Below are positions 1 through 7,942 of a stretch of 7,942 nucleotides of DNA, piece by piece. Source of the stretch: a virus. Lineage: Duplodnaviria > Heunggongvirae > Uroviricota > Caudoviricetes. Position 1 is the first letter of the stretch. Each line of letters begins with the position of its first letter. Below the pieces are notes generated by a model. That model worked only from the letters and a program-made list of their open reading frames with translations, made no database searches and was not told the origin of the DNA. Location of the stretch: the IMG/VR virus record IMGVR_UViG_2529293139_000009. One strand, 5' to 3'. The translations under genes and the position numbers were made by a program.

Positions 1-144
1 TTAATTTCGATTATTTTTCCCGGATGGAAAATTCTTAGAAACCGATCACATACAGCTGCATTTATTAAGGTTATCATCCGTTTCGCTGAAAAACATAACC
101 CATAAAATGCTAGCTGTACCAGGAACCACCTCCTTAGCCTGTGT

Positions 145-171
145 AATCTCCCTTACACGGGCTTATTTTTT
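145..171. other. Phage attachment-site core (attR), 27 bp, P2-type
   Basis: The reverse complement of 145-171 reads AAAAAATAAGCCCGTGTAAGGGAGATT, which matches the 27-bp P2 att core as I remember it. Its position just past ogr is where attP lies in P2 (ogr-attP-int). Confidence 0.6.
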
Positions 172-212
172 ACGCGTAATACAATGAAATAAAAGGATTT
201 ATTTCTGGTCAC

Positions 213-230
213 GTCCACACATTGACCACA
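213..230 (-). promoter_or_regulatory. Candidate integrase arm-type binding sites (two direct repeats)
   Basis: The minus strand reads TGTGGTCA-atg-TGTGGACG, two 8-bp direct repeats spaced 11 bp start to start (one helical turn), between the ogr terminator and the att core. The link to tyrosine-integrase arm sites is inference. Confidence 0.35.
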
Positions 231-231
231 T

Positions 232-259
232 CGACAAAAAAGCCCCTCGACTGAGGGGC
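232..259 (-). terminator. Rho-independent terminator downstream of ogr, ending the late tail/ogr transcript
   Basis: Minus strand has a GC-rich hairpin GCCCCTC-AGTC-GAGGGGC (plus 242-259) immediately followed by TTTTTTG (plus 235-241), 14 nt past the ogr stop. Confidence 0.8.
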
Positions 260-272
260 TTCCTGTTTGTAA

Positions 273-491
273 TTACATCCACATAATTTGCTGCCCTGAC
301 GGCAACGGGTGCGGTCTTACGGCGTGGACTTCTCCCGGCTTCACGATGTATCGCTGTACCGACTCATAAGTGATAAACGTGGCGCTGCAATTCACGTTCT
401 GACACTGGTGATAACGCTCTTTTGTCGTGTCAGTGATATAGCGGCTTGTACGCGCATGTGCGGCATGCTGGCATAAAGGACAATGAAACAT
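273..491 (-). CDS. ogr: Ogr, zinc-finger late-gene transcriptional activator (72 aa)
   Basis: Translation MFHCPLCQHAAHARTSRYITDTTKERYHQCQNVNC... has the Cys4 arrangement CxxC-22-CxxxxC and is recognised as P2 Ogr. Start placed at the internal ATG at 491, which has an RBS GAGGTG 6 nt upstream, not at the ORF-track start at 554. Confidence 0.9.
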   Translation of the reverse strand: MFHCPLCQHAAHARTSRYITDTTKERYHQCQNVNCSATFITYESVQRYIVKPGEVHAVRPHPLPSGQQIMWM

Positions 492-525
492 CGCGAGCAC
501 CTCTTCCGATTTTGTTGATGGTGCC

Positions 526-554
526 ATTTTAGTTAATTTATCCTTATAAAACAA
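526..554 (-). promoter_or_regulatory. Candidate sigma70-type promoter for ogr
   Basis: Minus strand reads TTGTTT (plus 549-554), a 17-nt spacer, then TAAAAT (plus 526-531), in the AT-rich D-ogr intergenic region. Pattern match only. Confidence 0.3.
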
Positions 555-572
555 ACAGATAAAATAAAAACA

Positions 573-1736
573 TCACTCATCATCTTCTGTTTCGTACTCC
601 ACATCAGAAAGCCTGACCTCAAGCTCCAAGGACGTCGTGAAGCCGCTATTATTCAGAAAATGTGTCACCTTAGTGATTGTCCAGTCCTGCTCGTCTATGA
701 CGCGCTTAAAGCCTGACACTTTGACCGGCGTTTCCGTGTAAATATCTGCCCGACCAGTAGCCAGGCTGATGGAGAACTCCGCAACGCCCCGTTGCAGTTT
801 GTCCCACTTCGCCTGAGCGGCGCGCATAGCCTGCGCTTTTGTGGCATATACCGTGGTCAGGGCAAAAACGTTGTCAGCTTCACCGGCCATGTATTCACCT
901 TCGCGCGCTTCCGGTACTTTTGGCGCTTTCTTCTGCGTGACCGGTTTCGCTTTCGGGTGCTCCAGTGCGCGCAGGTGTTTTTCTTTCTTTTTGCGTTTCA
1001 GTTTTACCTTCTGCTTTTGCGGCTTCGGGTCTTTGGTGTGTAACCACTTTGCCGTTACGCCGGTGTAAGCTCCACGGTCAGCAATCGCAAAATGATGACG
1101 GTCACCGTCGCTGCGGGTGATGGTAATCTGCGGGATTTTTTTACCGCTGGCAGTCACCCCCTGCCCCGCTTTGAGAAACAACAGTTTTCCCATTTTTACC
1201 GACACCTCACCGCCGTTGCGTTCAGCAAGGCGGGTCAGAAATTTCGCATCAGACTCCTGCGACTGGTCGATGTGCGGGATTTTAATTCCGTCCAGTGACG
1301 GCGCGACACTGGCTTCCAGCTTGTTACGGGAGGCTATCGCCTCAACAATCGCACCGAGCGTGGTGTCATGCCATGAGCCTTCACGGCGGGAATTGAGCGT
1401 CCCGCGAAAATCTGCACTCCGGGCGCGGATGGTAACCACATCCGGCGCGCCCCGGTGTTCAACCTCATCAACGGTGAATTTCCCTTTGCATACCAGGGCA
1501 AAACCTTTCCAGCCGATATACACCGTCAGGACAGCGCCACGAACCGGCAGCCCGACCTGCCCGTCGGCATCGTTCAGTTCAATATCAAGCTGGTCAGCCT
1601 CAAAGCCCCGGTTATCCGTCAGGGTCATGCTCATCAGACGGTCGCTGATATTGCCGGTAATATCCCTGCTGTCGAGCATCAGCATGTAATCCGGCGTCAG
1701 CGTACTGCCTGCATCAAATGTCAGCGCATCCAGCAT
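573..1736 (-). CDS. D: Tail protein gpD (387 aa), P2 D-like late tail gene product
   Basis: 387-aa ORF recognised as P2 gpD by sequence and by position (last gene of the tail operon before ogr). Its ATG overlaps the U stop (TAATG). Confidence 0.9.
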   Translation of the reverse strand: MLDALTFDAGSTLTPDYMLMLDSRDITGNISDRLMSMTLTDNRGFEADQLDIELNDADGQVGLPVRGAVLTVYIGWKGFALVCKGKFTVDEVEHRGAPDVVTIRARSADFRGTLNSRREGSWHDTTLGAIVEAIASRNKLEASVAPSLDGIKIPHIDQSQESDAKFLTRLAERNGGEVSVKMGKLLFLKAGQGVTASGKKIPQITITRSDGDRHHFAIADRGAYTGVTAKWLHTKDPKPQKQKVKLKRKKKEKHLRALEHPKAKPVTQKKAPKVPEAREGEYMAGEADNVFALTTVYATKAQAMRAAQAKWDKLQRGVAEFSISLATGRADIYTETPVKVSGFKRVIDEQDWTITKVTHFLNNSGFTTSLELEVRLSDVEYETEDDE

Positions 1737-2215
1737 TATCCCGCCCCCGTCATACCCGTGAATTTAGTCGCCATACTGCCAGCCTTACCGATGAGCGATT
1801 CCGCCTGTTTACCGATATCGCCATAAAGCGCGGCCAGTGATTCATCAACGCGGGTGAGCGACAGCGTAAAATCAATTTTCCGGGGTGTGCCGTCTGCAAA
1901 GAAAATACTCCCTGTTTCATTCACCCTGCTGATGACATACATGCCGTAAATCATGCCGGTGCCATCCAGCAACGGCCACGCCCGACCTTCCTCTGCCATC
2001 AGTCTGAGCGTGGTCATCGTCAGCTTGCCGCCGGTCAGTTCGGGATAAAGCACGCCGGCAAGCGTAATGTTTTCCTCACCCACACCGAGAAACTGAAAGG
2101 CATCCCGTTTACCGATACGGGAATTTGACGGCCAGCGATAATCTGATTCACGCTGCATGGTCTGGTGTGGCAGCGTCTGGCGCATAAAAACAAACATACC
2201 TAACGCGAGCATCAT
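1736..2215 (-). CDS. U: Tail protein gpU (159 aa)
   Basis: 159-aa ORF between T and D, recognised as P2 gpU. A strong RBS GGAGGTGA sits 6 nt upstream, directly after the T stop codon. Confidence 0.9.
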   Translation of the reverse strand: MMLALGMFVFMRQTLPHQTMQRESDYRWPSNSRIGKRDAFQFLGVGEENITLAGVLYPELTGGKLTMTTLRLMAEEGRAWPLLDGTGMIYGMYVISRVNETGSIFFADGTPRKIDFTLSLTRVDESLAALYGDIGKQAESLIGKAGSMATKFTGMTGAG

Positions 2216-2229
2216 TTTTCGTCACCTCC

Positions 2230-4677
2230 TTAACCGTCATGCATCATGCTGGCACGGGCGCGCGCACGTTTATCCCGCTCATATTTTTCGAGCGCATCCT
2301 GTAACTGGCGGTCGAGCTGAGTCCCCGGCGCAGTACCGCCCGTCAGACTGATGTGATATTCGTTTTTACTCTGGTCCACATAAGAGCGGCCAGCCGGTGC
2401 CGTAACCGGCTGATAAGCCTGATAGCCTGCATAAGAGCTGGTCGCCGGAATATAACCACCGGTGCCATACGTGGCGGCATGAGTTCTGGCGGCGGTCTGG
2501 TCAAGTGTGTCTGACTCTTTGTTGATAACACCGAGTTTTTCCAGTACCCAGTCAATACCACTGCGCAGTTTGTTGAACGCATTAAGCGGCAGCATCAACG
2601 CGTCAGCCAGTGCCTGCCCGAACATGACGCCCGTGTCACGGCAACGGTTCAGGGTGTCCTGGGTGGCTTTAACCGGGGCAATCAGGTTTTTAAACCACTG
2701 CCACGCGGCCTGTAACTTTTCGCCCAGCCAGTCAAACACCGGCTTAAGTGGCGTGAACAGTTCCCCCACCGGCGCAAATGCCGCTTTCAGCCCTTCCACC
2801 ACACCGCCAAAGAATGCGCTGACAGGCTCCCAGTATTTACGGATAAGCAACGCCCCGGCGACAATGGCGGCCACCACGGCCACAACCGGCCAGCTAATCG
2901 CTCCGATGGCGGTCATAACAGCACTGCCAACCGTCGTGAAGATTGCCCCCATTGCGCCTGCTGCCGCGATGATGGCATTGATGCCGGTGATAACCGGCCA
3001 GGCTACGAGGCCAATGGCACCGATGACACCAATCAGTGCCAGTGCACCACCGACAATAAGTCCGATGGTTGACGCCAGTGATTTGTTTTTCTGGATCCAG
3101 CCGTCGAGTTTTAACACATACTTTGTGGCCGTCTGCGTGAGCTTACGCAGTGCGCCTTCCTGCTGGTCAAACAGGTCAGTCCCCACCGCCTCATAAGCGG
3201 ACTGAAACTCTTTAAAGTCACCGCCTAGGTTGTCCTGCATGATATTTACCAGCTCGGCAGTCTTCCCGTCTGAGGCTTTAAACGCAGCGGTCAGTTTGTC
3301 CAGCTTTCCGGTTGAGGCGGCAGTCATCAGCACGGCGGCGGCTGAGCTGGCCTCCTCCCCGAAAATAGTTTTCATGTATTCAGCCTGCTGGGCAGTACCG
3401 AGCCGGTTTTTCTCAAAACTGGCCTGCATTTCTTTCAGAATGGTAAATATTGGCCGGGTGTTTCCCTTGCTGTCTGAGGTTTTCACGCCAAGCTCTTTGA
3501 GTGCATCCCATGCTTTTCCCGTCGGTGCCTGCAGGCGGCTTAACACGGCACGGCTTCCCGTCCCCGCCATTGAGCCTGTGATTTTTGCATCATGCAGCGC
3601 CCCGACCATTGCGGCGGTTTCTTCAATGCTGACACCGGCATTTTTTGCCACAGGTGCGGCATAGGTCAGCGCATCGCTCATACCGTCAAAATCGGCGGCG
3701 GTTTTGTTCATCGTCATGGAGAGAACATCCCCGATATGAGCGACCTTATCGTTTGAAAGCTGAAAGGCGGATTTCATCCCCATCAGCAGGGCGGCGTTTT
3801 CTTCCATCGTGCGGCGGTTCGCCAGCGCCATATTCAGCGTGACCGGCGTTGCCGCCTGAATGGCATCAACATCCCCACCCGCTTTCGCAATAATAATCTG
3901 CGCACCGGCCGCATCATCCGCCGAGGCGGCGGTGTTGTCGCCGAGCTGGCGCGCCTGTTTGCGGAGCGCGGCCATTTCGGCGGAGTCTTTTGCCACTCCG
4001 AGCACAGCCTGTAATTCTGAGTTTTTCTGCGCAAACTCATAACCGGGCATCAGCAGCTTAACTCCGGCCATCGTTCCCGCCGCCGCAATCCCCACACCGG
4101 CAGCGCCCACTGAGGCCATATTTCCGGCCAGTTCCTTGCCGGCCTGATAACGCTGTTTGACTGCGTTAAGTTTTGCCTGTTGTTCACTGACACGCGCCAG
4201 TGCATCGCGCTGACGGTTAAGCTGTGCGGTGGTTTCACTGATACGGTTTTTCAGCCCCTGCTCATCATGTGCAAGATTGCGGGTATTAATTCCCACAGCG
4301 GCCAGTTCCCGCTGCTGGCGCTTAACGGAATCCGTCAGGCGGTTATATTTCGCCTGTAAGTCCTCCGCCGCACGCTTCGCGGATTCCAGCACTTTCGCCT
4401 GAGCACGTGTCGGACGTTCAGTGTTTTTAAACTGTGTGGCAAGGGCTTCGGCCTCCTGCCGTGCCTTTTCAAGTGCATGACCAGTCACGGCGAGCTGTGC
4501 GCTGGTCTTGCGAAATCCCTCAATACGGGATGCGTGACCGTTCAGCTCGCGCAGTGATTTTTGTGTTTCCCGGATATCCCCCGACAGCGACTTGCTCGCT
4601 GTGCGGATGGATTTAAACGGGCGGGATGCCTGGTCAACAGCCCTGAGCAATACCTGTAATTTTACATTGTTACTCAT
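2230..4677 (-). CDS. T: Tail tape measure protein gpT (815 aa)
   Basis: 815-aa ORF with an N-terminal coiled-coil-like, Ala/Gln/Arg-rich region and a long Gly/Ala/Ile hydrophobic segment (residues about 533-612), typical of tape measure proteins. Size and position match P2 gpT. Confidence 0.92.
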   Translation of the reverse strand: MSNNVKLQVLLRAVDQASRPFKSIRTASKSLSGDIRETQKSLRELNGHASRIEGFRKTSAQLAVTGHALEKARQEAEALATQFKNTERPTRAQAKVLESAKRAAEDLQAKYNRLTDSVKRQQRELAAVGINTRNLAHDEQGLKNRISETTAQLNRQRDALARVSEQQAKLNAVKQRYQAGKELAGNMASVGAAGVGIAAAGTMAGVKLLMPGYEFAQKNSELQAVLGVAKDSAEMAALRKQARQLGDNTAASADDAAGAQIIIAKAGGDVDAIQAATPVTLNMALANRRTMEENAALLMGMKSAFQLSNDKVAHIGDVLSMTMNKTAADFDGMSDALTYAAPVAKNAGVSIEETAAMVGALHDAKITGSMAGTGSRAVLSRLQAPTGKAWDALKELGVKTSDSKGNTRPIFTILKEMQASFEKNRLGTAQQAEYMKTIFGEEASSAAAVLMTAASTGKLDKLTAAFKASDGKTAELVNIMQDNLGGDFKEFQSAYEAVGTDLFDQQEGALRKLTQTATKYVLKLDGWIQKNKSLASTIGLIVGGALALIGVIGAIGLVAWPVITGINAIIAAAGAMGAIFTTVGSAVMTAIGAISWPVVAVVAAIVAGALLIRKYWEPVSAFFGGVVEGLKAAFAPVGELFTPLKPVFDWLGEKLQAAWQWFKNLIAPVKATQDTLNRCRDTGVMFGQALADALMLPLNAFNKLRSGIDWVLEKLGVINKESDTLDQTAARTHAATYGTGGYIPATSSYAGYQAYQPVTAPAGRSYVDQSKNEYHISLTGGTAPGTQLDRQLQDALEKYERDKRARARASMMHDG

Positions 4678-5097
4678 TCGTGTTTCCGCTTCGCCGGAGC
4701 GCCTTTTCGCGCCATGTGATAAGTTCGGTCAGGCTCATGGGATACAGTTCTGATGGCGGCCAGTGAAATATCACTGCCACATCCGCCATCAGGTCATCGA
4801 CCGAGAGATTTTTCGGAAACGTTACTGCACCGAGTTCGGCGACAAAAAACCGACCACCTTACCGGCCAGCGCCACAAGGTCAGGCAGTTCCAGCGCGGCG
4901 ACCTCCTGCTCGGTCAGCATCGGTGCCGTCATGCGCGGCAGCACTTTAATCAGTGCATCGACTTCGGAGTTTGCGACCGCAGCCAGACTGACACCGCGCA
5001 GCGTCCCGGCATTGGGTTTCATCAGCGTGACCTGTTCGATAACCTGCTCACCACGCTTGACCGGATTGTCCAGGGTAATCACATTTTCTTTGTTCAT
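4670..5097 (-). CDS. E': gpE+E' fusion made by -1 programmed ribosomal frameshift (85 aa of E plus a 57-aa extension, 142 aa total)
   Basis: My hand translation of the -1 frame after the slip site runs VAELGAVTFPKNLSVDDLMADVAVIFHWPPSELYPMSLTELITWREKALRRSGNTNE to a TAA at 4670-4672, overlapping the T start codon by 8 nt. This is the P2 E/E' arrangement, analogous to lambda G/GT. Confidence 0.75.
4822..5097 (-). CDS. E: Tail assembly chaperone gpE (91 aa, zero-frame product)
   Basis: 91-aa ORF between FII and T, recognised as P2 gpE. Contains the slippery heptamer T-TTT-TTG near its 3' end. Confidence 0.9.
   Translation of the reverse strand: MNKENVITLDNPVKRGEQVIEQVTLMKPNAGTLRGVSLAAVANSEVDALIKVLPRMTAPMLTEQEVAALELPDLVALAGKVVGFLSPNSVQ
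4843..4849 (-). other. Slippery heptamer T-TTT-TTG for the E/E' -1 frameshift
   Basis: The minus strand reads GGT TTT TTG TCG in the E frame (plus strand 4843-4849 is CAAAAAA), an X-XXY-YYZ motif. Confidence 0.75.
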
Positions 5098-5125
5098 GGT
5101 TTTCTCACTTCTGAATCAGGGTTAA

Positions 5126-5146
5126 CCGGTCAGCCTGGCTGACCGG
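5126..5146 (-). other. Perfect 21-bp palindrome in the FII-E intergenic region (possible mRNA hairpin)
   Basis: CCGGTCAGCC-T-GGCTGACCGG at 5126-5146, between the FII stop (5154) and the E start (5097). No U-tract follows on the transcript strand, so it is not a canonical intrinsic terminator. Confidence 0.5.
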
Positions 5147-5153
5147 ATGAAAA

Positions 5154-5672
5154 TCACAGGCCGATATTGCGGCGGTGTTGCTCCAGCCGGTCGGCGCCGT
5201 TCACCTTCTCAATCATGTTGATGGTGTCGATTTCGACCAGCTCCTTACCGTCCATCGTCAGCCGGAAATAGGTGCAGACCACGGAAATTTTCGACTCGGT
5301 GTCTTCTCCCTGTTTACCCTCGCCGGTGTCGATTTCTTTCTGACGTCCACGCATGACCACCTCGACGGCTACCGTTTCGCCGGTATCGTCGCGCTGGTAA
5401 GAGCCTGCAAAACGAATCGGCACAGCATCCACACCGGTTGCGGCGTAAAGCTCCCAGATAACCGAATCCGGGAAGCCCCCGAGCGACCACTCCATTGACA
5501 GCGCATCGTCATCAAGGCCGAGGTCTACCGGTGCGCTTCCGTTCATCCCCGCACCGCGATAGTTTTCGAGTTTACGGGTCAGTTTTGGCAGCGTGACGGA
5601 CTTTGCAACGCCCTGATAGCTGTAGCCGTTCAGAAAGACGTTCATTAACTTGAGTTTGCGCGGCATTGCCAT
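5154..5672 (-). CDS. FII: Tail tube protein gpFII (172 aa)
   Basis: 172-aa ORF immediately downstream of the sheath gene, recognised as P2 FII. RBS AAGGAG overlaps the FI stop codon. Confidence 0.92.
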   Translation of the reverse strand: MAMPRKLKLMNVFLNGYSYQGVAKSVTLPKLTRKLENYRGAGMNGSAPVDLGLDDDALSMEWSLGGFPDSVIWELYAATGVDAVPIRFAGSYQRDDTGETVAVEVVMRGRQKEIDTGEGKQGEDTESKISVVCTYFRLTMDGKELVEIDTINMIEKVNGADRLEQHRRNIGL

Positions 5673-5684
5673 CGGTCAGGCTCC

Positions 5685-6872
5685 TTAATTGCTGTTAACC
5701 GAGGTGACCAGATTTGCCAGGTATTTATCGGTAATACGCTGGCGCAGGGTCAGGTTTTCAAGAGGAGGAACCGGGGTATAGTCGTAGTCGATATACAGTT
5801 TTCCGGCCTTAAGGGTTTCCGCATCGTTGGATTCTTTGCTGAACCAGCAGGTCGCATCCACGATATAGCCGTTTGTTTTCAGCTCACGAAATTTGGCATT
5901 GATGCCGTCAACGATGTCGCGAATCAGCGTTGCGGTGATGGGCTTGTCAACCGCCCACATGTGCGCCTCAGCCATCGTGTCGGCCAGCACCTGCGCGGTG
6001 CGGGTGTAGTTTTCAAAGAGGAACAGCGGGTCATCAGAGCAGGTACGGTTACCCCAGAATCGGAAACCGTCGCGGCGAATCAGCGTAGTGACGCCTGACT
6101 CGTTAAGCAGGTCAGCATCGGTGCCGGACTCCTGCAAATCCCAGAATACAGATGCGCTGATGCCGGTAACACCGTTTACCCCGACGTTGGACAGCGTTTT
6201 ATGCCATCCCTGCTCCTGGTCGATTTTAGCGCGCAGACCCAGCGCACGGGCGGTGGCATACGCGGTGGCGGTGGTACTGGTGACCGTATCCCATGCGAGG
6301 AAATCCGGCCAGATGACCATCAGCTCACGCTGGCTGAAATTCTGGCGGTAGGCTTTCACCTCGGAAATGGTCTTACAGCCCCATGCGCTGATATATCCGA
6401 AAGCGCGCAGCTTCTGACAGACGGATGCCAATGCAACTGCCACCTCTTTGGTATCCAGTCCCGGCACACCGAGAATACGCGGTTTAACACCGGTTACCGA
6501 CTCCGCCGCCAGCAGGGCTTTTAGTCCGGTGTACTGACCGTTTTCGTCGGTGGTGCCGATGATATTGGAAACGGTCTGCGCGAGTTTCGTTTCCTCGTCG
6601 CCGGTGCCGTCTTCCACACGCACGACAACGGTGACCGGTTTTGACTGGTCGGCGATGGCCTGCAACGATGCCGCCAGCGTGCCTTTTTTACCGGCCTTTG
6701 CAATTGCGCTCTGCACATTGGTAATCAGCACCGGTTTATTGACGGGGAAGGTTTCCGCATCCGCATCGCTGGCCGTGCAGACCATGCCAACAATGGCGGT
6801 GGATACAGTGGAAATGACGCGGGTGCCGTCGTTAATCTCCAGCACCTGCACGCCGTGATGATAGTCACTCAT
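5685..6872 (-). CDS. FI: Contractile tail sheath protein gpFI (395 aa)
   Basis: 395-aa ORF, first gene of the FI-FII-E-T-U-D block, recognised as P2 FI. RBS GGAG 8 nt upstream of the ATG at 6872. Confidence 0.92.
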   Translation of the reverse strand: MSDYHHGVQVLEINDGTRVISTVSTAIVGMVCTASDADAETFPVNKPVLITNVQSAIAKAGKKGTLAASLQAIADQSKPVTVVVRVEDGTGDEETKLAQTVSNIIGTTDENGQYTGLKALLAAESVTGVKPRILGVPGLDTKEVAVALASVCQKLRAFGYISAWGCKTISEVKAYRQNFSQRELMVIWPDFLAWDTVTSTTATAYATARALGLRAKIDQEQGWHKTLSNVGVNGVTGISASVFWDLQESGTDADLLNESGVTTLIRRDGFRFWGNRTCSDDPLFLFENYTRTAQVLADTMAEAHMWAVDKPITATLIRDIVDGINAKFRELKTNGYIVDATCWFSKESNDAETLKAGKLYIDYDYTPVPPLENLTLRQRITDKYLANLVTSVNSN

Positions 6873-6931
6873 CCGTTTAACTCCGTGGTTAATGGGTGAG
6901 TGTTATTTTCAGTTGTGCCGGAGATGTCAGG

Positions 6932-7525
6932 CTATTTGTCCCGGTTGGCTAAGGGATGACACAATTTATTCTTTGCCGCTGATGAGGGGAGTTTTTTATA
7001 GAGCGTGGACAGGCCAATATCAAAAATCAGCGCCACGCGTTGACGTGATTCACCCGCAGCCAGCAACCGTCCTGCCTGTTCCCACTCACTCGCGGTGAGC
7101 TTCGGACGTCTGCCACCAATACGCCCTTTGGCTCTGGCCGCTTCCAGTCCGGCGCGTGTCCGCTCGACAATGAGTTCTCGCTCCATTTCAGCCAGGGGAC
7201 CCATCACATGAAAGAAAAAACGCCCCATCGGCGTGCTGGTATCAATAGCATCTGTCAGGCTGCGAAAATTAACGCCGCGTTCGCGCAGCTCCTCAACCAG
7301 AATGACCAGATGCCGCATACTACGCCCCAGCCGGTCCAGCTTCCAGACTACCAGAGTGTCACCTGCTGATAATGTTCTGAGCAGTTTTTTCAGTCCCGGT
7401 CGGTCGGACTTCGTGCCGCTGATTTTATCCTCAAAAATCCGCTCGCATCCTGCGCACTCCAGCGCGTTACGCTGCAATTCCGTGTTCTGGTCATTTGTTG
7501 ACACGCGTACATAGCCAATAAGCAT
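6932..7525 (-). CDS. Serine DNA invertase of the Gin/Pin/Cin/Hin family (about 197 aa)
   Basis: N-terminus MLIGYVRVSTNDQNTELQRNAL carries the catalytic serine motif, followed by DTLVVWKLDRLGRS and the conserved GRFFFHVMGPLAEMERELIVERT block, with a C-terminal helix-turn-helix (VALIFDIGLSTLYKK). This is near-collinear with Gin and Hin as I recall them. Start set at the second ATG (7525) because the GGGGG RBS abuts the first ATG at 7531. Confidence 0.9.
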   Translation of the reverse strand: MLIGYVRVSTNDQNTELQRNALECAGCERIFEDKISGTKSDRPGLKKLLRTLSAGDTLVVWKLDRLGRSMRHLVILVEELRERGVNFRSLTDAIDTSTPMGRFFFHVMGPLAEMERELIVERTRAGLEAARAKGRIGGRRPKLTASEWEQAGRLLAAGESRQRVALIFDIGLSTLYKKLPSSAAKNKLCHPLANRDK

Positions 7526-7552
7526 GAGCATCCCCCTGAATAAAAACCGGAG

Positions 7553-7942
7553 ATGATGCCAGTTGCCCGTTATCTCTGCATTTTCATAAACGTTGGTTTG
7601 GGAGAAGGCTCTGCATTACCTGTTGGTGTCCCTGTTCCGTGGCCTTCAGCCACTCCGCCAACAGGCTGGCTGAAATGCAATGGTGCAGCTTTTTCTGCTG
7701 AAGAATACCCGGAACTGGCAAAGGCTTATCCGACAAATAAATTGCCTGATTTACGTGGTGAGTTTATTCGCGGCTGGGATGACGGGCGCGGGGTTGACTC
7801 TGGACGAGGTTTGTTGACGGCGCAGGCGGAAACAAAGATAACTAACCACCACGGCAATGGCGGTAACGCTGATGATATTTCGGCTGGTGTCTCCGGTTCA
7901 CCTCCCAAAAAACTTTGTCAGAAACGCGGATTCGGCAGTTAA
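7553..7942 (+). CDS. Tail-fibre variable C-terminal segment (Mu/P1 S-variable-like), alternate-orientation cassette of an invertible segment; possibly truncated
   Basis: The stretch PVGVPVPWPSATPPTGWLKCNGAAFSAEEYPELAKAYPTNKLPDLRGEFIRGWDDGRG resembles the conserved start of Mu/P1/e14 tail-fibre variable parts just after the crossover site. The first 13 or so codons lie outside the putative invertible segment, and the ORF's stop codon is the last 3 nt of the window. Confidence 0.6.
   Translation: MMPVARYLCIFINVGLGEGSALPVGVPVPWPSATPPTGWLKCNGAAFSAEEYPELAKAYPTNKLPDLRGEFIRGWDDGRGVDSGRGLLTAQAETKITNHHGNGGNADDISAGVSGSPPKKLCQKRGFGS
7581..7606. other. Candidate 26-bp invertase crossover site (hix/gix/cix-like)
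   Basis: TTTTCATAAACG-TT-GGTTTGGGAGAA fits the imperfect-palindrome architecture xxxxxxAAACx-NN-GGTTTxxGAxAA of hixL (TTCTTGAAAACCAAGGTTTTTGATAA, from memory). It lies 55 bp upstream of the invertase start, inside the 5' end of the tail-fibre ORF. Confidence 0.55.

Follow-up and report, generated by a model that had tools for sequence, protein, structure and literature searches.

A P2-type prophage junction at the 3' end of the sRNA gene cyaR

Junctions between P2-type prophages and the cyaR gene of Escherichia coli are ordinary and already documented. Archer et al. (2011, PMC3032704, Table 2) give 'cyaR RNA' as the place where P2-type prophages are inserted in E. coli B, K-12 ('ogr-D'') and W (Wphi2), and Bobay et al. 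(2013, PMC3603311), citing Wassarman et al. (2001), refer to ryeE in E. coli as 'previously known to be targeted by phages'. Integration at the 3' ends of RNA genes is a general pattern (PMC3603311). Concerning the target itself, Hfq-dependent sRNAs require the terminator hairpin and the U-tail for Hfq binding, and 41% readthrough has been reported for the CyaR terminator on a plasmid (PMC9765468). The same article, which cites De Lay and Gottesman (2009) and Johansen (2008), gives cyaR as cAMP-CRP-dependent (PMC9765468).

The K-12 annotation places cyaR (b4438) directly after yegQ/trhP, and the 'cryptic prophage PR-X' starts inside the 3' end of cyaR. In this remnant the D fragment is fused to a truncated second core (...ggagaactc/tgcTACACGGGCTTATTTTTT/atgcataagccc); the remnant arose by a deletion running from inside gene D to inside the core on the int side. 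This K-12 element is the one reportedly described in 1992 by Barreiro and Haggard-Ljungquist. At positions 2800-2835 of the K-12 locus, PR-X ends with ...TACACGGGCTTATTTTTT and is followed by the yegR-side flank. We take the cyaR site to be locI, the attachment site preferred by P2 in E. coli (Yu et al. 1989; Barreiro and Haggard-Ljungquist 1992).

Here we have analysed a stretch of viral DNA of 7,942 nucleotides, hereafter the window, whose features are collected in Table 1. We are highly confident that bases 1-272 of the window represent the ogr-side junction, attR (P-O-B'), of a Peduovirus-type prophage inserted at the classical P2 site, the 3' end of cyaR, between yegQ/trhP and yegR. The junction is named attR in the lambda/P2 convention because it keeps the P arm, as the arms are labelled in the P2 record.

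Table 1. Features of the window around and beyond the junction, and of the insert found at the empty site of strain A25
Feature	Coordinates	Strand	Basis
Host intergenic DNA, yegQ/trhP stop codon to cyaR 5' end; expected cyaR promoter region	1..84	+	position
cyaR (ryeE) sRNA gene, 87 nt, intact	85..171	+	Rfam RF00112; identity to K-12 b4438
CyaR intrinsic terminator, 11-bp stem and 6-nt loop (136-163), then tail TATTTTTT	136..171	+	terminator scan, RNA fold, Rfam structure line
att core (O), 27 bp	145..171	.	crossover region common to attP and attB; identical to annotated P2 core
IHF site, P arm (putative)	170..203	.	ungapped homology to P2 'IHF' protein_bind 24324-24357
Int arm-type sites, P arm (putative)	207..234	.	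P2 'Int, P arm' 24293-24320; sequence identical to P2
Rho-independent terminator of ogr and the late F operon	239..262	-	P2 annotation; T-run on minus strand
ogr, late-gene transcription activator, 72-aa zinc finger	273..491	-	Pfam Ogr_Delta 76.9 bits; annotated ogrK in DCE7, REL606 and K-12
P2 late tail block, all full-length ORFs	573..6872	-	Pfam; gene order as in P2 and DCE7
D	573-1736	-	Phage_GPD
U	1736-2215	-	Phage_P2_GpU
Tape measure T	2230-4677	-	PhageMin_Tail
E	4822-5097	-	Phage_TAC_7
Tube FII	5154-5672	-	Phage_tube
Sheath FI	5685-6872	-	Phage_sheath
Insert at the A25 empty site: P-arm relic, yegR, degenerate core (2688-2714)	A25 locus 1912-2714		same DNA past the DCE7 int-side core, DCE7 locus 12806 down to ~12000

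The first-pass annotation had recognised the reverse complement of bases 145-171 as the P2 att core and had placed this core just past ogr and its terminator. Both observations were correct. Bases 145-171 (AATCTCCCTTACACGGGCTTATTTTTT), the reverse complement of which is the 27-mer quoted in that annotation, are identical at 27/27 positions to bases 24356-24382 of the P2 genome (AF063097), which are annotated there as 'attP' and 'Int, attP core', and the alignment with P2 begins exactly at base 145 of the window. The 27-mer is present once in the window, even when up to 3 mismatches are allowed, with 0 copies expected from 200 shuffles. Over bases 145-272, window and P2 share 95.3% identity, and the terminator scan found a hairpin at 240-261 with 9 pairs, 6 of them G-C, between the core and ogr (273-491). 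By homology with P2, the att site of the window would be expected to bind Int and IHF and to recombine.

The transition from host to phage DNA was then examined by comparing the 110-bp flanks of the core in the window, in the empty attB of strain A25, in P2 attP and at both ends of the prophage of strain DCE7. The left flank of the window matched the empty attB at 110/110 positions and P2 attP at 19/110, while its right flank matched the empty attB at 38/110 and P2 attP at 104/110; the 6 differences from P2 all fall within the ~15 bases next to the core, inside the IHF region. At the int-side end of the DCE7 prophage the arrangement was reversed: the left flank matched the empty attB at 19/110 and P2 attP at 110/110, and the right flank matched them at 110/110 and 36/110, respectively. 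Such a four-way pattern is exactly what attB x attP recombination inside the core leaves behind. One flank of the window is that of the empty bacterial site and the other that of attP, and the switch between them occurs inside the core.

The distribution of the two flanks agrees with the earlier proposal that bases 1-144 are host DNA, since bases 1-171 are present in 5422/5426 complete E. coli genomes, with a median of one copy and at least 99% identity in nearly all of them. Moreover, the comparison with an uninfected relative that had been suggested for this stretch gave the complete identity to the left of the core in A25 reported above. Bases 1-272 are contiguous in only 1273/5426 of the complete E. 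coli genomes. In 82 phage records with similarity to the region, the match is confined to the part right of base 145, or of ~184, with a single exception. This record, which covers 1-272 ('Phage TP', AY639599.1), was rejected as proof that 1-144 can be phage-borne: its 2.4 kb contain ogr and yegQ, the latter annotated as 'putative protease', and are thus chromosomal DNA of the K-12-remnant type. ON470606.1 (vB_EcoM-720R8), the sole further 'phage' record with host-side DNA, was likewise rejected as a phage genome bearing the host flank, as it runs ~2.9 kb past attL into yegR, yegS and gatR. Thus, the continuity of 1-144 with phage DNA in related phages, which would have spoken against a prophage end, was found only in these two chromosomal fragments, and no genuine phage genome with 1-144 was present among the phage records matched. 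Note that both records are filed as phage and carry host chromosome, and they can mislead searches for phage-borne host flanks.

On the host side, the first base of the window is the first base past the yegQ stop codon in REL606, DCE7 and A25. The Rfam model RF00112 matched bases 83-168 on the plus strand over its full length (model 1-85 of 85; 100.7 bits against a gathering threshold of 47; E 7.7e-20), and CyaR/RyeE was the sole Rfam family detected in the window. Bases 85-171 are identical (87/87) to the K-12 ncRNA cyaR, b4438. The predicted fold of CyaR has a free energy of -19.8 kcal/mol (z = -3.0) and includes the terminal hairpin. CyaR is expected to be functional in the window, because its sequence is identical to that of the characterised K-12 gene. 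The first 60 nt of CyaR lie within 1-144 and its last 27 nt are the att core. Within the CyaR terminator, this core comprises the loop together with the 3' strand of the stem and the U-tail.

Upstream of the gene, a CRP-like site at 35-50 (TTAGAAACCGATCACA) matches 8/10 bases of the TGTGA-N6-TCACA half-sites and is centred at -42.5 from the annotated 5' end of cyaR. The cyaR promoter is presumably a class II CRP promoter. We infer that it lies within 1-84 from its position and from the published CRP dependence, and we leave it at that because a generic sigma-70 scan upstream of cyaR found no promoter. Frame 1 is open from the left edge to a stop at 103-105. It was considered as the 3' end of an integrase or other gene and was rejected: none of the genomes inspected has an annotated CDS there, yegQ ends just ahead of base 1, and the bases concerned belong to the promoter and the 5' portion of cyaR.

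These results refine two statements of the first-pass annotation. Bases 1-144 had been described as AT-rich and free of ORFs, which holds (38.2% GC, and no annotated CDS in any RefSeq genome inspected), but they are not featureless, since the promoter region of cyaR and the 5'-terminal 60 nt of the sRNA lie there. The window had also been said to capture one prophage end and to define the integration locus; the flank comparison bears this out, but the locus is the 3' end of cyaR and not anonymous AT-rich DNA. The prophage boundary can now be fixed to the base: phage DNA starts at 172, the shared core occupies 145-171, and the locus is cyaR, between yegQ/trhP and yegR. This carries a warning for annotation, as what passes for non-coding host DNA is an Hfq-dependent sRNA whose Hfq-binding terminator is also carried by the phage.

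The closest relative of the window is the prophage of E. coli strain DCE7 (NZ_CP090611), with 99.0% identity over 1-7806; no genome in the collection was identical to the window. The order in DCE7 is yegQ, cyaR, ogr, D, the other late genes, A, B, cox, C, the tyrosine recombinase and yegR, with the C-like HTH and cox genes beside the integrase. A second core had been predicted ~30-35 kb away, next to an integrase, and DCE7 has exactly two exact cores, 33,537 bp apart, the second lying 78 bp past the stop codon of the tyrosine integrase and adjoining yegR; note that this is the genome of a relative and not that of the window itself. The yegR-side flank past the int-side core starts with atgcataagccctatccc.

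The cyaR-site prophages of DCE7 and REL606 have a variable slot, flanked by gene A (replication) and the portal gene, in which defence-type cargo is found. In DCE7 this slot (DCE7 locus 18956-24436) holds IS5, two reverse-transcriptase genes and a retron Ec48-family effector, and in REL606 (REL606 locus 32570-36261) an ABC-three-component system and an AAA ATPase.

The window also carries, at 6932-7531 on the minus strand, a serine DNA invertase of the Gin/Hin type (Pfam Resolvase and HTH_7; PDB 'DNA-invertase' 3uj3, E 7e-94), flanked by the sheath gene and by a tail-fibre fragment that runs in the opposite direction and has a Collar domain (7553-7942, plus strand). A crossover-like site of 27 bp is present at 7581-7607, and its inverted partner lies 1.86 kb away inside the DCE7 tail-fibre gene. 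The invertase and the tail-fibre segment constitute a Mu/P1-type invertible segment for host range. In REL606 neither such a segment nor a recombinase next to the sheath gene is annotated, and P2 is not known to have a Gin-type invertase or an invertible tail-fibre segment.

Other readings of the junction can be weighed against these data. Were the window derived from a free phage genome, circular or packaged, bases 145-171 would be attP, and the right-hand side is indeed 95-100% identical to the attP regions of P2-like phages; yet across the core P2 continues with the P' arm and the 3' end of int, which the left flank of the window matches only at chance level, whereas its match to the host attB is complete, and the two 'phage' records with bases 1-144 are pieces of chromosome, one with yegQ and the other with yegR, yegS and gatR. 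We regard a free phage origin as extremely improbable. Hardly any more credible is the notion that the 27-mer is merely the terminator of the host cyaR gene and that its match to P2 has no recombinational meaning. The 27-mer does occur in essentially every E. coli genome, lysogenic or not, but phage homology starts exactly at its left edge, host homology stops exactly at its right edge, and lysogens carry it twice, bracketing the prophage. The 27-mer is both the CyaR terminator and the att core, so the two readings are not alternatives.

A more serious possibility accepts the junction as real but takes the prophage to be defective or partly deleted, as in REL606 or PR-X, rather than complete and excisable. 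Precedents are at hand: REL606 has an identical 1-272 junction, and its D and FII genes are internally deleted pseudogenes; the 'E. coli strain C' record (CP029371) has the same junction and a REL606-like defective prophage with deletions in the tail genes; K-12, again with this junction, retains only ogr and a D fragment that ends in the truncated second core. From overlapping counts, ~400 of the 1273 genomes with the junction appear to hold short remnants, and in DCE7 itself the portal gene is frameshifted and a copy of IS5 is inserted. Against this, ogr, D, U, T, E, FII and FI of the window are full-length with complete Pfam coverage, which excludes deletions of the K-12 or REL606 type over the first 7.9 kb of the prophage, where the window ends, though defects farther along may exist, and DCE7, the closest relative, has both ends and the integrase. 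We therefore consider a defective prophage rather unlikely, though by far the likeliest of these three readings. Note that CP029371 is uninformative as an example of the free classical site, as it carries the REL606-like prophage.

Our preferred reading, a Peduovirus-type prophage recombined into cyaR, suggests how this arrangement came about. By analogy with the established P2 system, the tyrosine integrase and the host IHF would exchange strands within the 27-bp core common to attP and the cyaR terminator. Because the phage core is identical to that of the host, cyaR is rebuilt base for base at the window junction and stays intact and unchanged in the lysogen; an orphan second core would be left beside int at the other end, as seen in DCE7. 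Since Hfq binding needs the terminator hairpin and the U-tail, a phage lacking a faithful copy of these 27 bases would inactivate CyaR. The copy carried by the phage should make integration neutral for CyaR, and the locus is a textbook case of a phage that inserts at the 3' end of a structured RNA gene and leaves the gene undamaged. Excision should need Int, IHF and Cox; the Cox sites are located on the P' arm in the P2 record and would lie at the other junction, and the window junction keeps the IHF and Int arm sites required for the reaction. Transcription of cyaR (plus strand) and of ogr with the late operon (minus strand) is convergent here, each presumably ended by its own terminator.

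P2-type DNA joined to cyaR is found in ~23% of the complete E. coli genomes. Judging from overlapping counts, in ~16% of the genomes (860) the insertion is probably too large for the empty-site query to bridge, and the rest would be short remnants. Next, species-representative genomes were scanned for the conserved part of cyaR, which gave at least 120 loci. Among the matches listed, yegQ is upstream of cyaR in 116/120 species loci, and 91 loci are devoid of phage-like DNA, with the start of yegS at a median of 103 bp past the cyaR loop. A strong P2-type P arm directly follows the cyaR terminator in 11/120 of the species loci among the matches listed, including several Citrobacter, Buttiauxella, Enterobacter and E. 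albertii, and ogr and D follow in 4 of these 11 within the DNA examined. Since such loci occur in several genera, the 3' end of cyaR is a P2-family attachment site across the Enterobacteriaceae. The sequence of the terminator stem differs between genera, and the phage cores therefore presumably track their hosts.

The 'empty' site of E. coli may itself have a history. Past the core, toward yegR, E. coli carries CTGGTCACCGTCTTCCATTGACCACATCGA, a 31-bp stretch placed 16 bp after the core, which matches the P2 Int P-arm site at 27/31 positions; the local score of this P-arm relic is 38, whereas 1000 shuffles averaged 14.7 and reached 29 at most, and the relic lies 16 bp nearer to the core than its counterpart does in P2. 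Among the matches listed, yegS lies ~85 bp past the cyaR terminator in 91 further enterobacterial species, one of them a sister lineage within Escherichia, and E. coli has ~800 extra bp between cyaR and yegS. The flank that directly follows cyaR in Escherichia sp. E1V33, the one lineage used for the sister comparison, resumes ~800 bp downstream in E. coli, immediately ahead of yegS, and the bases in front of it there are GAATCCCCATACCTGAACTGACTTTTT. This 27-mer resembles a degenerate core (16/27 ungapped, ~19/27 with one gap); it is weak by itself and takes its weight solely from its position at the expected junction. Moreover, of the 120 species loci listed, that of E. coli alone had yegR.

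A phage origin of yegR as such was considered and is unsupported: YegR has no Pfam family, and searches for phage relatives of YegR or of the 800-bp E. coli-specific DNA found none beyond the two mis-delimited records, neither of them a genuine phage homologue. A scenario to which we give an even chance is that a P2-type element entered cyaR long ago and that its decayed remains were fixed in E. coli, with yegR as surviving cargo, while present P2 phages enter the leftover attR of this ancestor, possibly helped by the residual arm-type site. If so, the E. coli attB would be the scar of an older insertion, which bears on the origin of att sites and of orphan genes such as yegR. This is the only, mildly new angle that the junction offers; the rest of it is known.

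Finally, the locus can be set beside the known systems. It shares with P2 attP the identical 27-bp core and the order core, IHF site, Int P-arm sites, ogr terminator, ogr and D. Unlike P2 attP, the window is a recombined junction, P-O-B', and its prophage is a relative of P2 that has a Gin-type invertase and an invertible tail-fibre segment. The K-12 element PR-X (ogrK - yegZ, 'ogr-D'') has the same cyaR/ogrK arrangement and matches the window at 110/110 positions to the left of the core and 109/110 to the right, but K-12 keeps only ~630 bp (ogr and the D fragment), whereas the window holds at least 7.8 kb of intact late genes. As occurs with the tyrosine-integrase phages found in the 3' ends of tRNA, tmRNA and sRNA genes (tRNA sites, ssrA, and ryeB/SdsR of Salmonella), the core overlaps the 3' end of the RNA and a replacement copy is carried by the phage. 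In contrast to integration at tRNA sites, the target here is the terminator of an Hfq-dependent sRNA and not the T-arm or acceptor stem of a tRNA.
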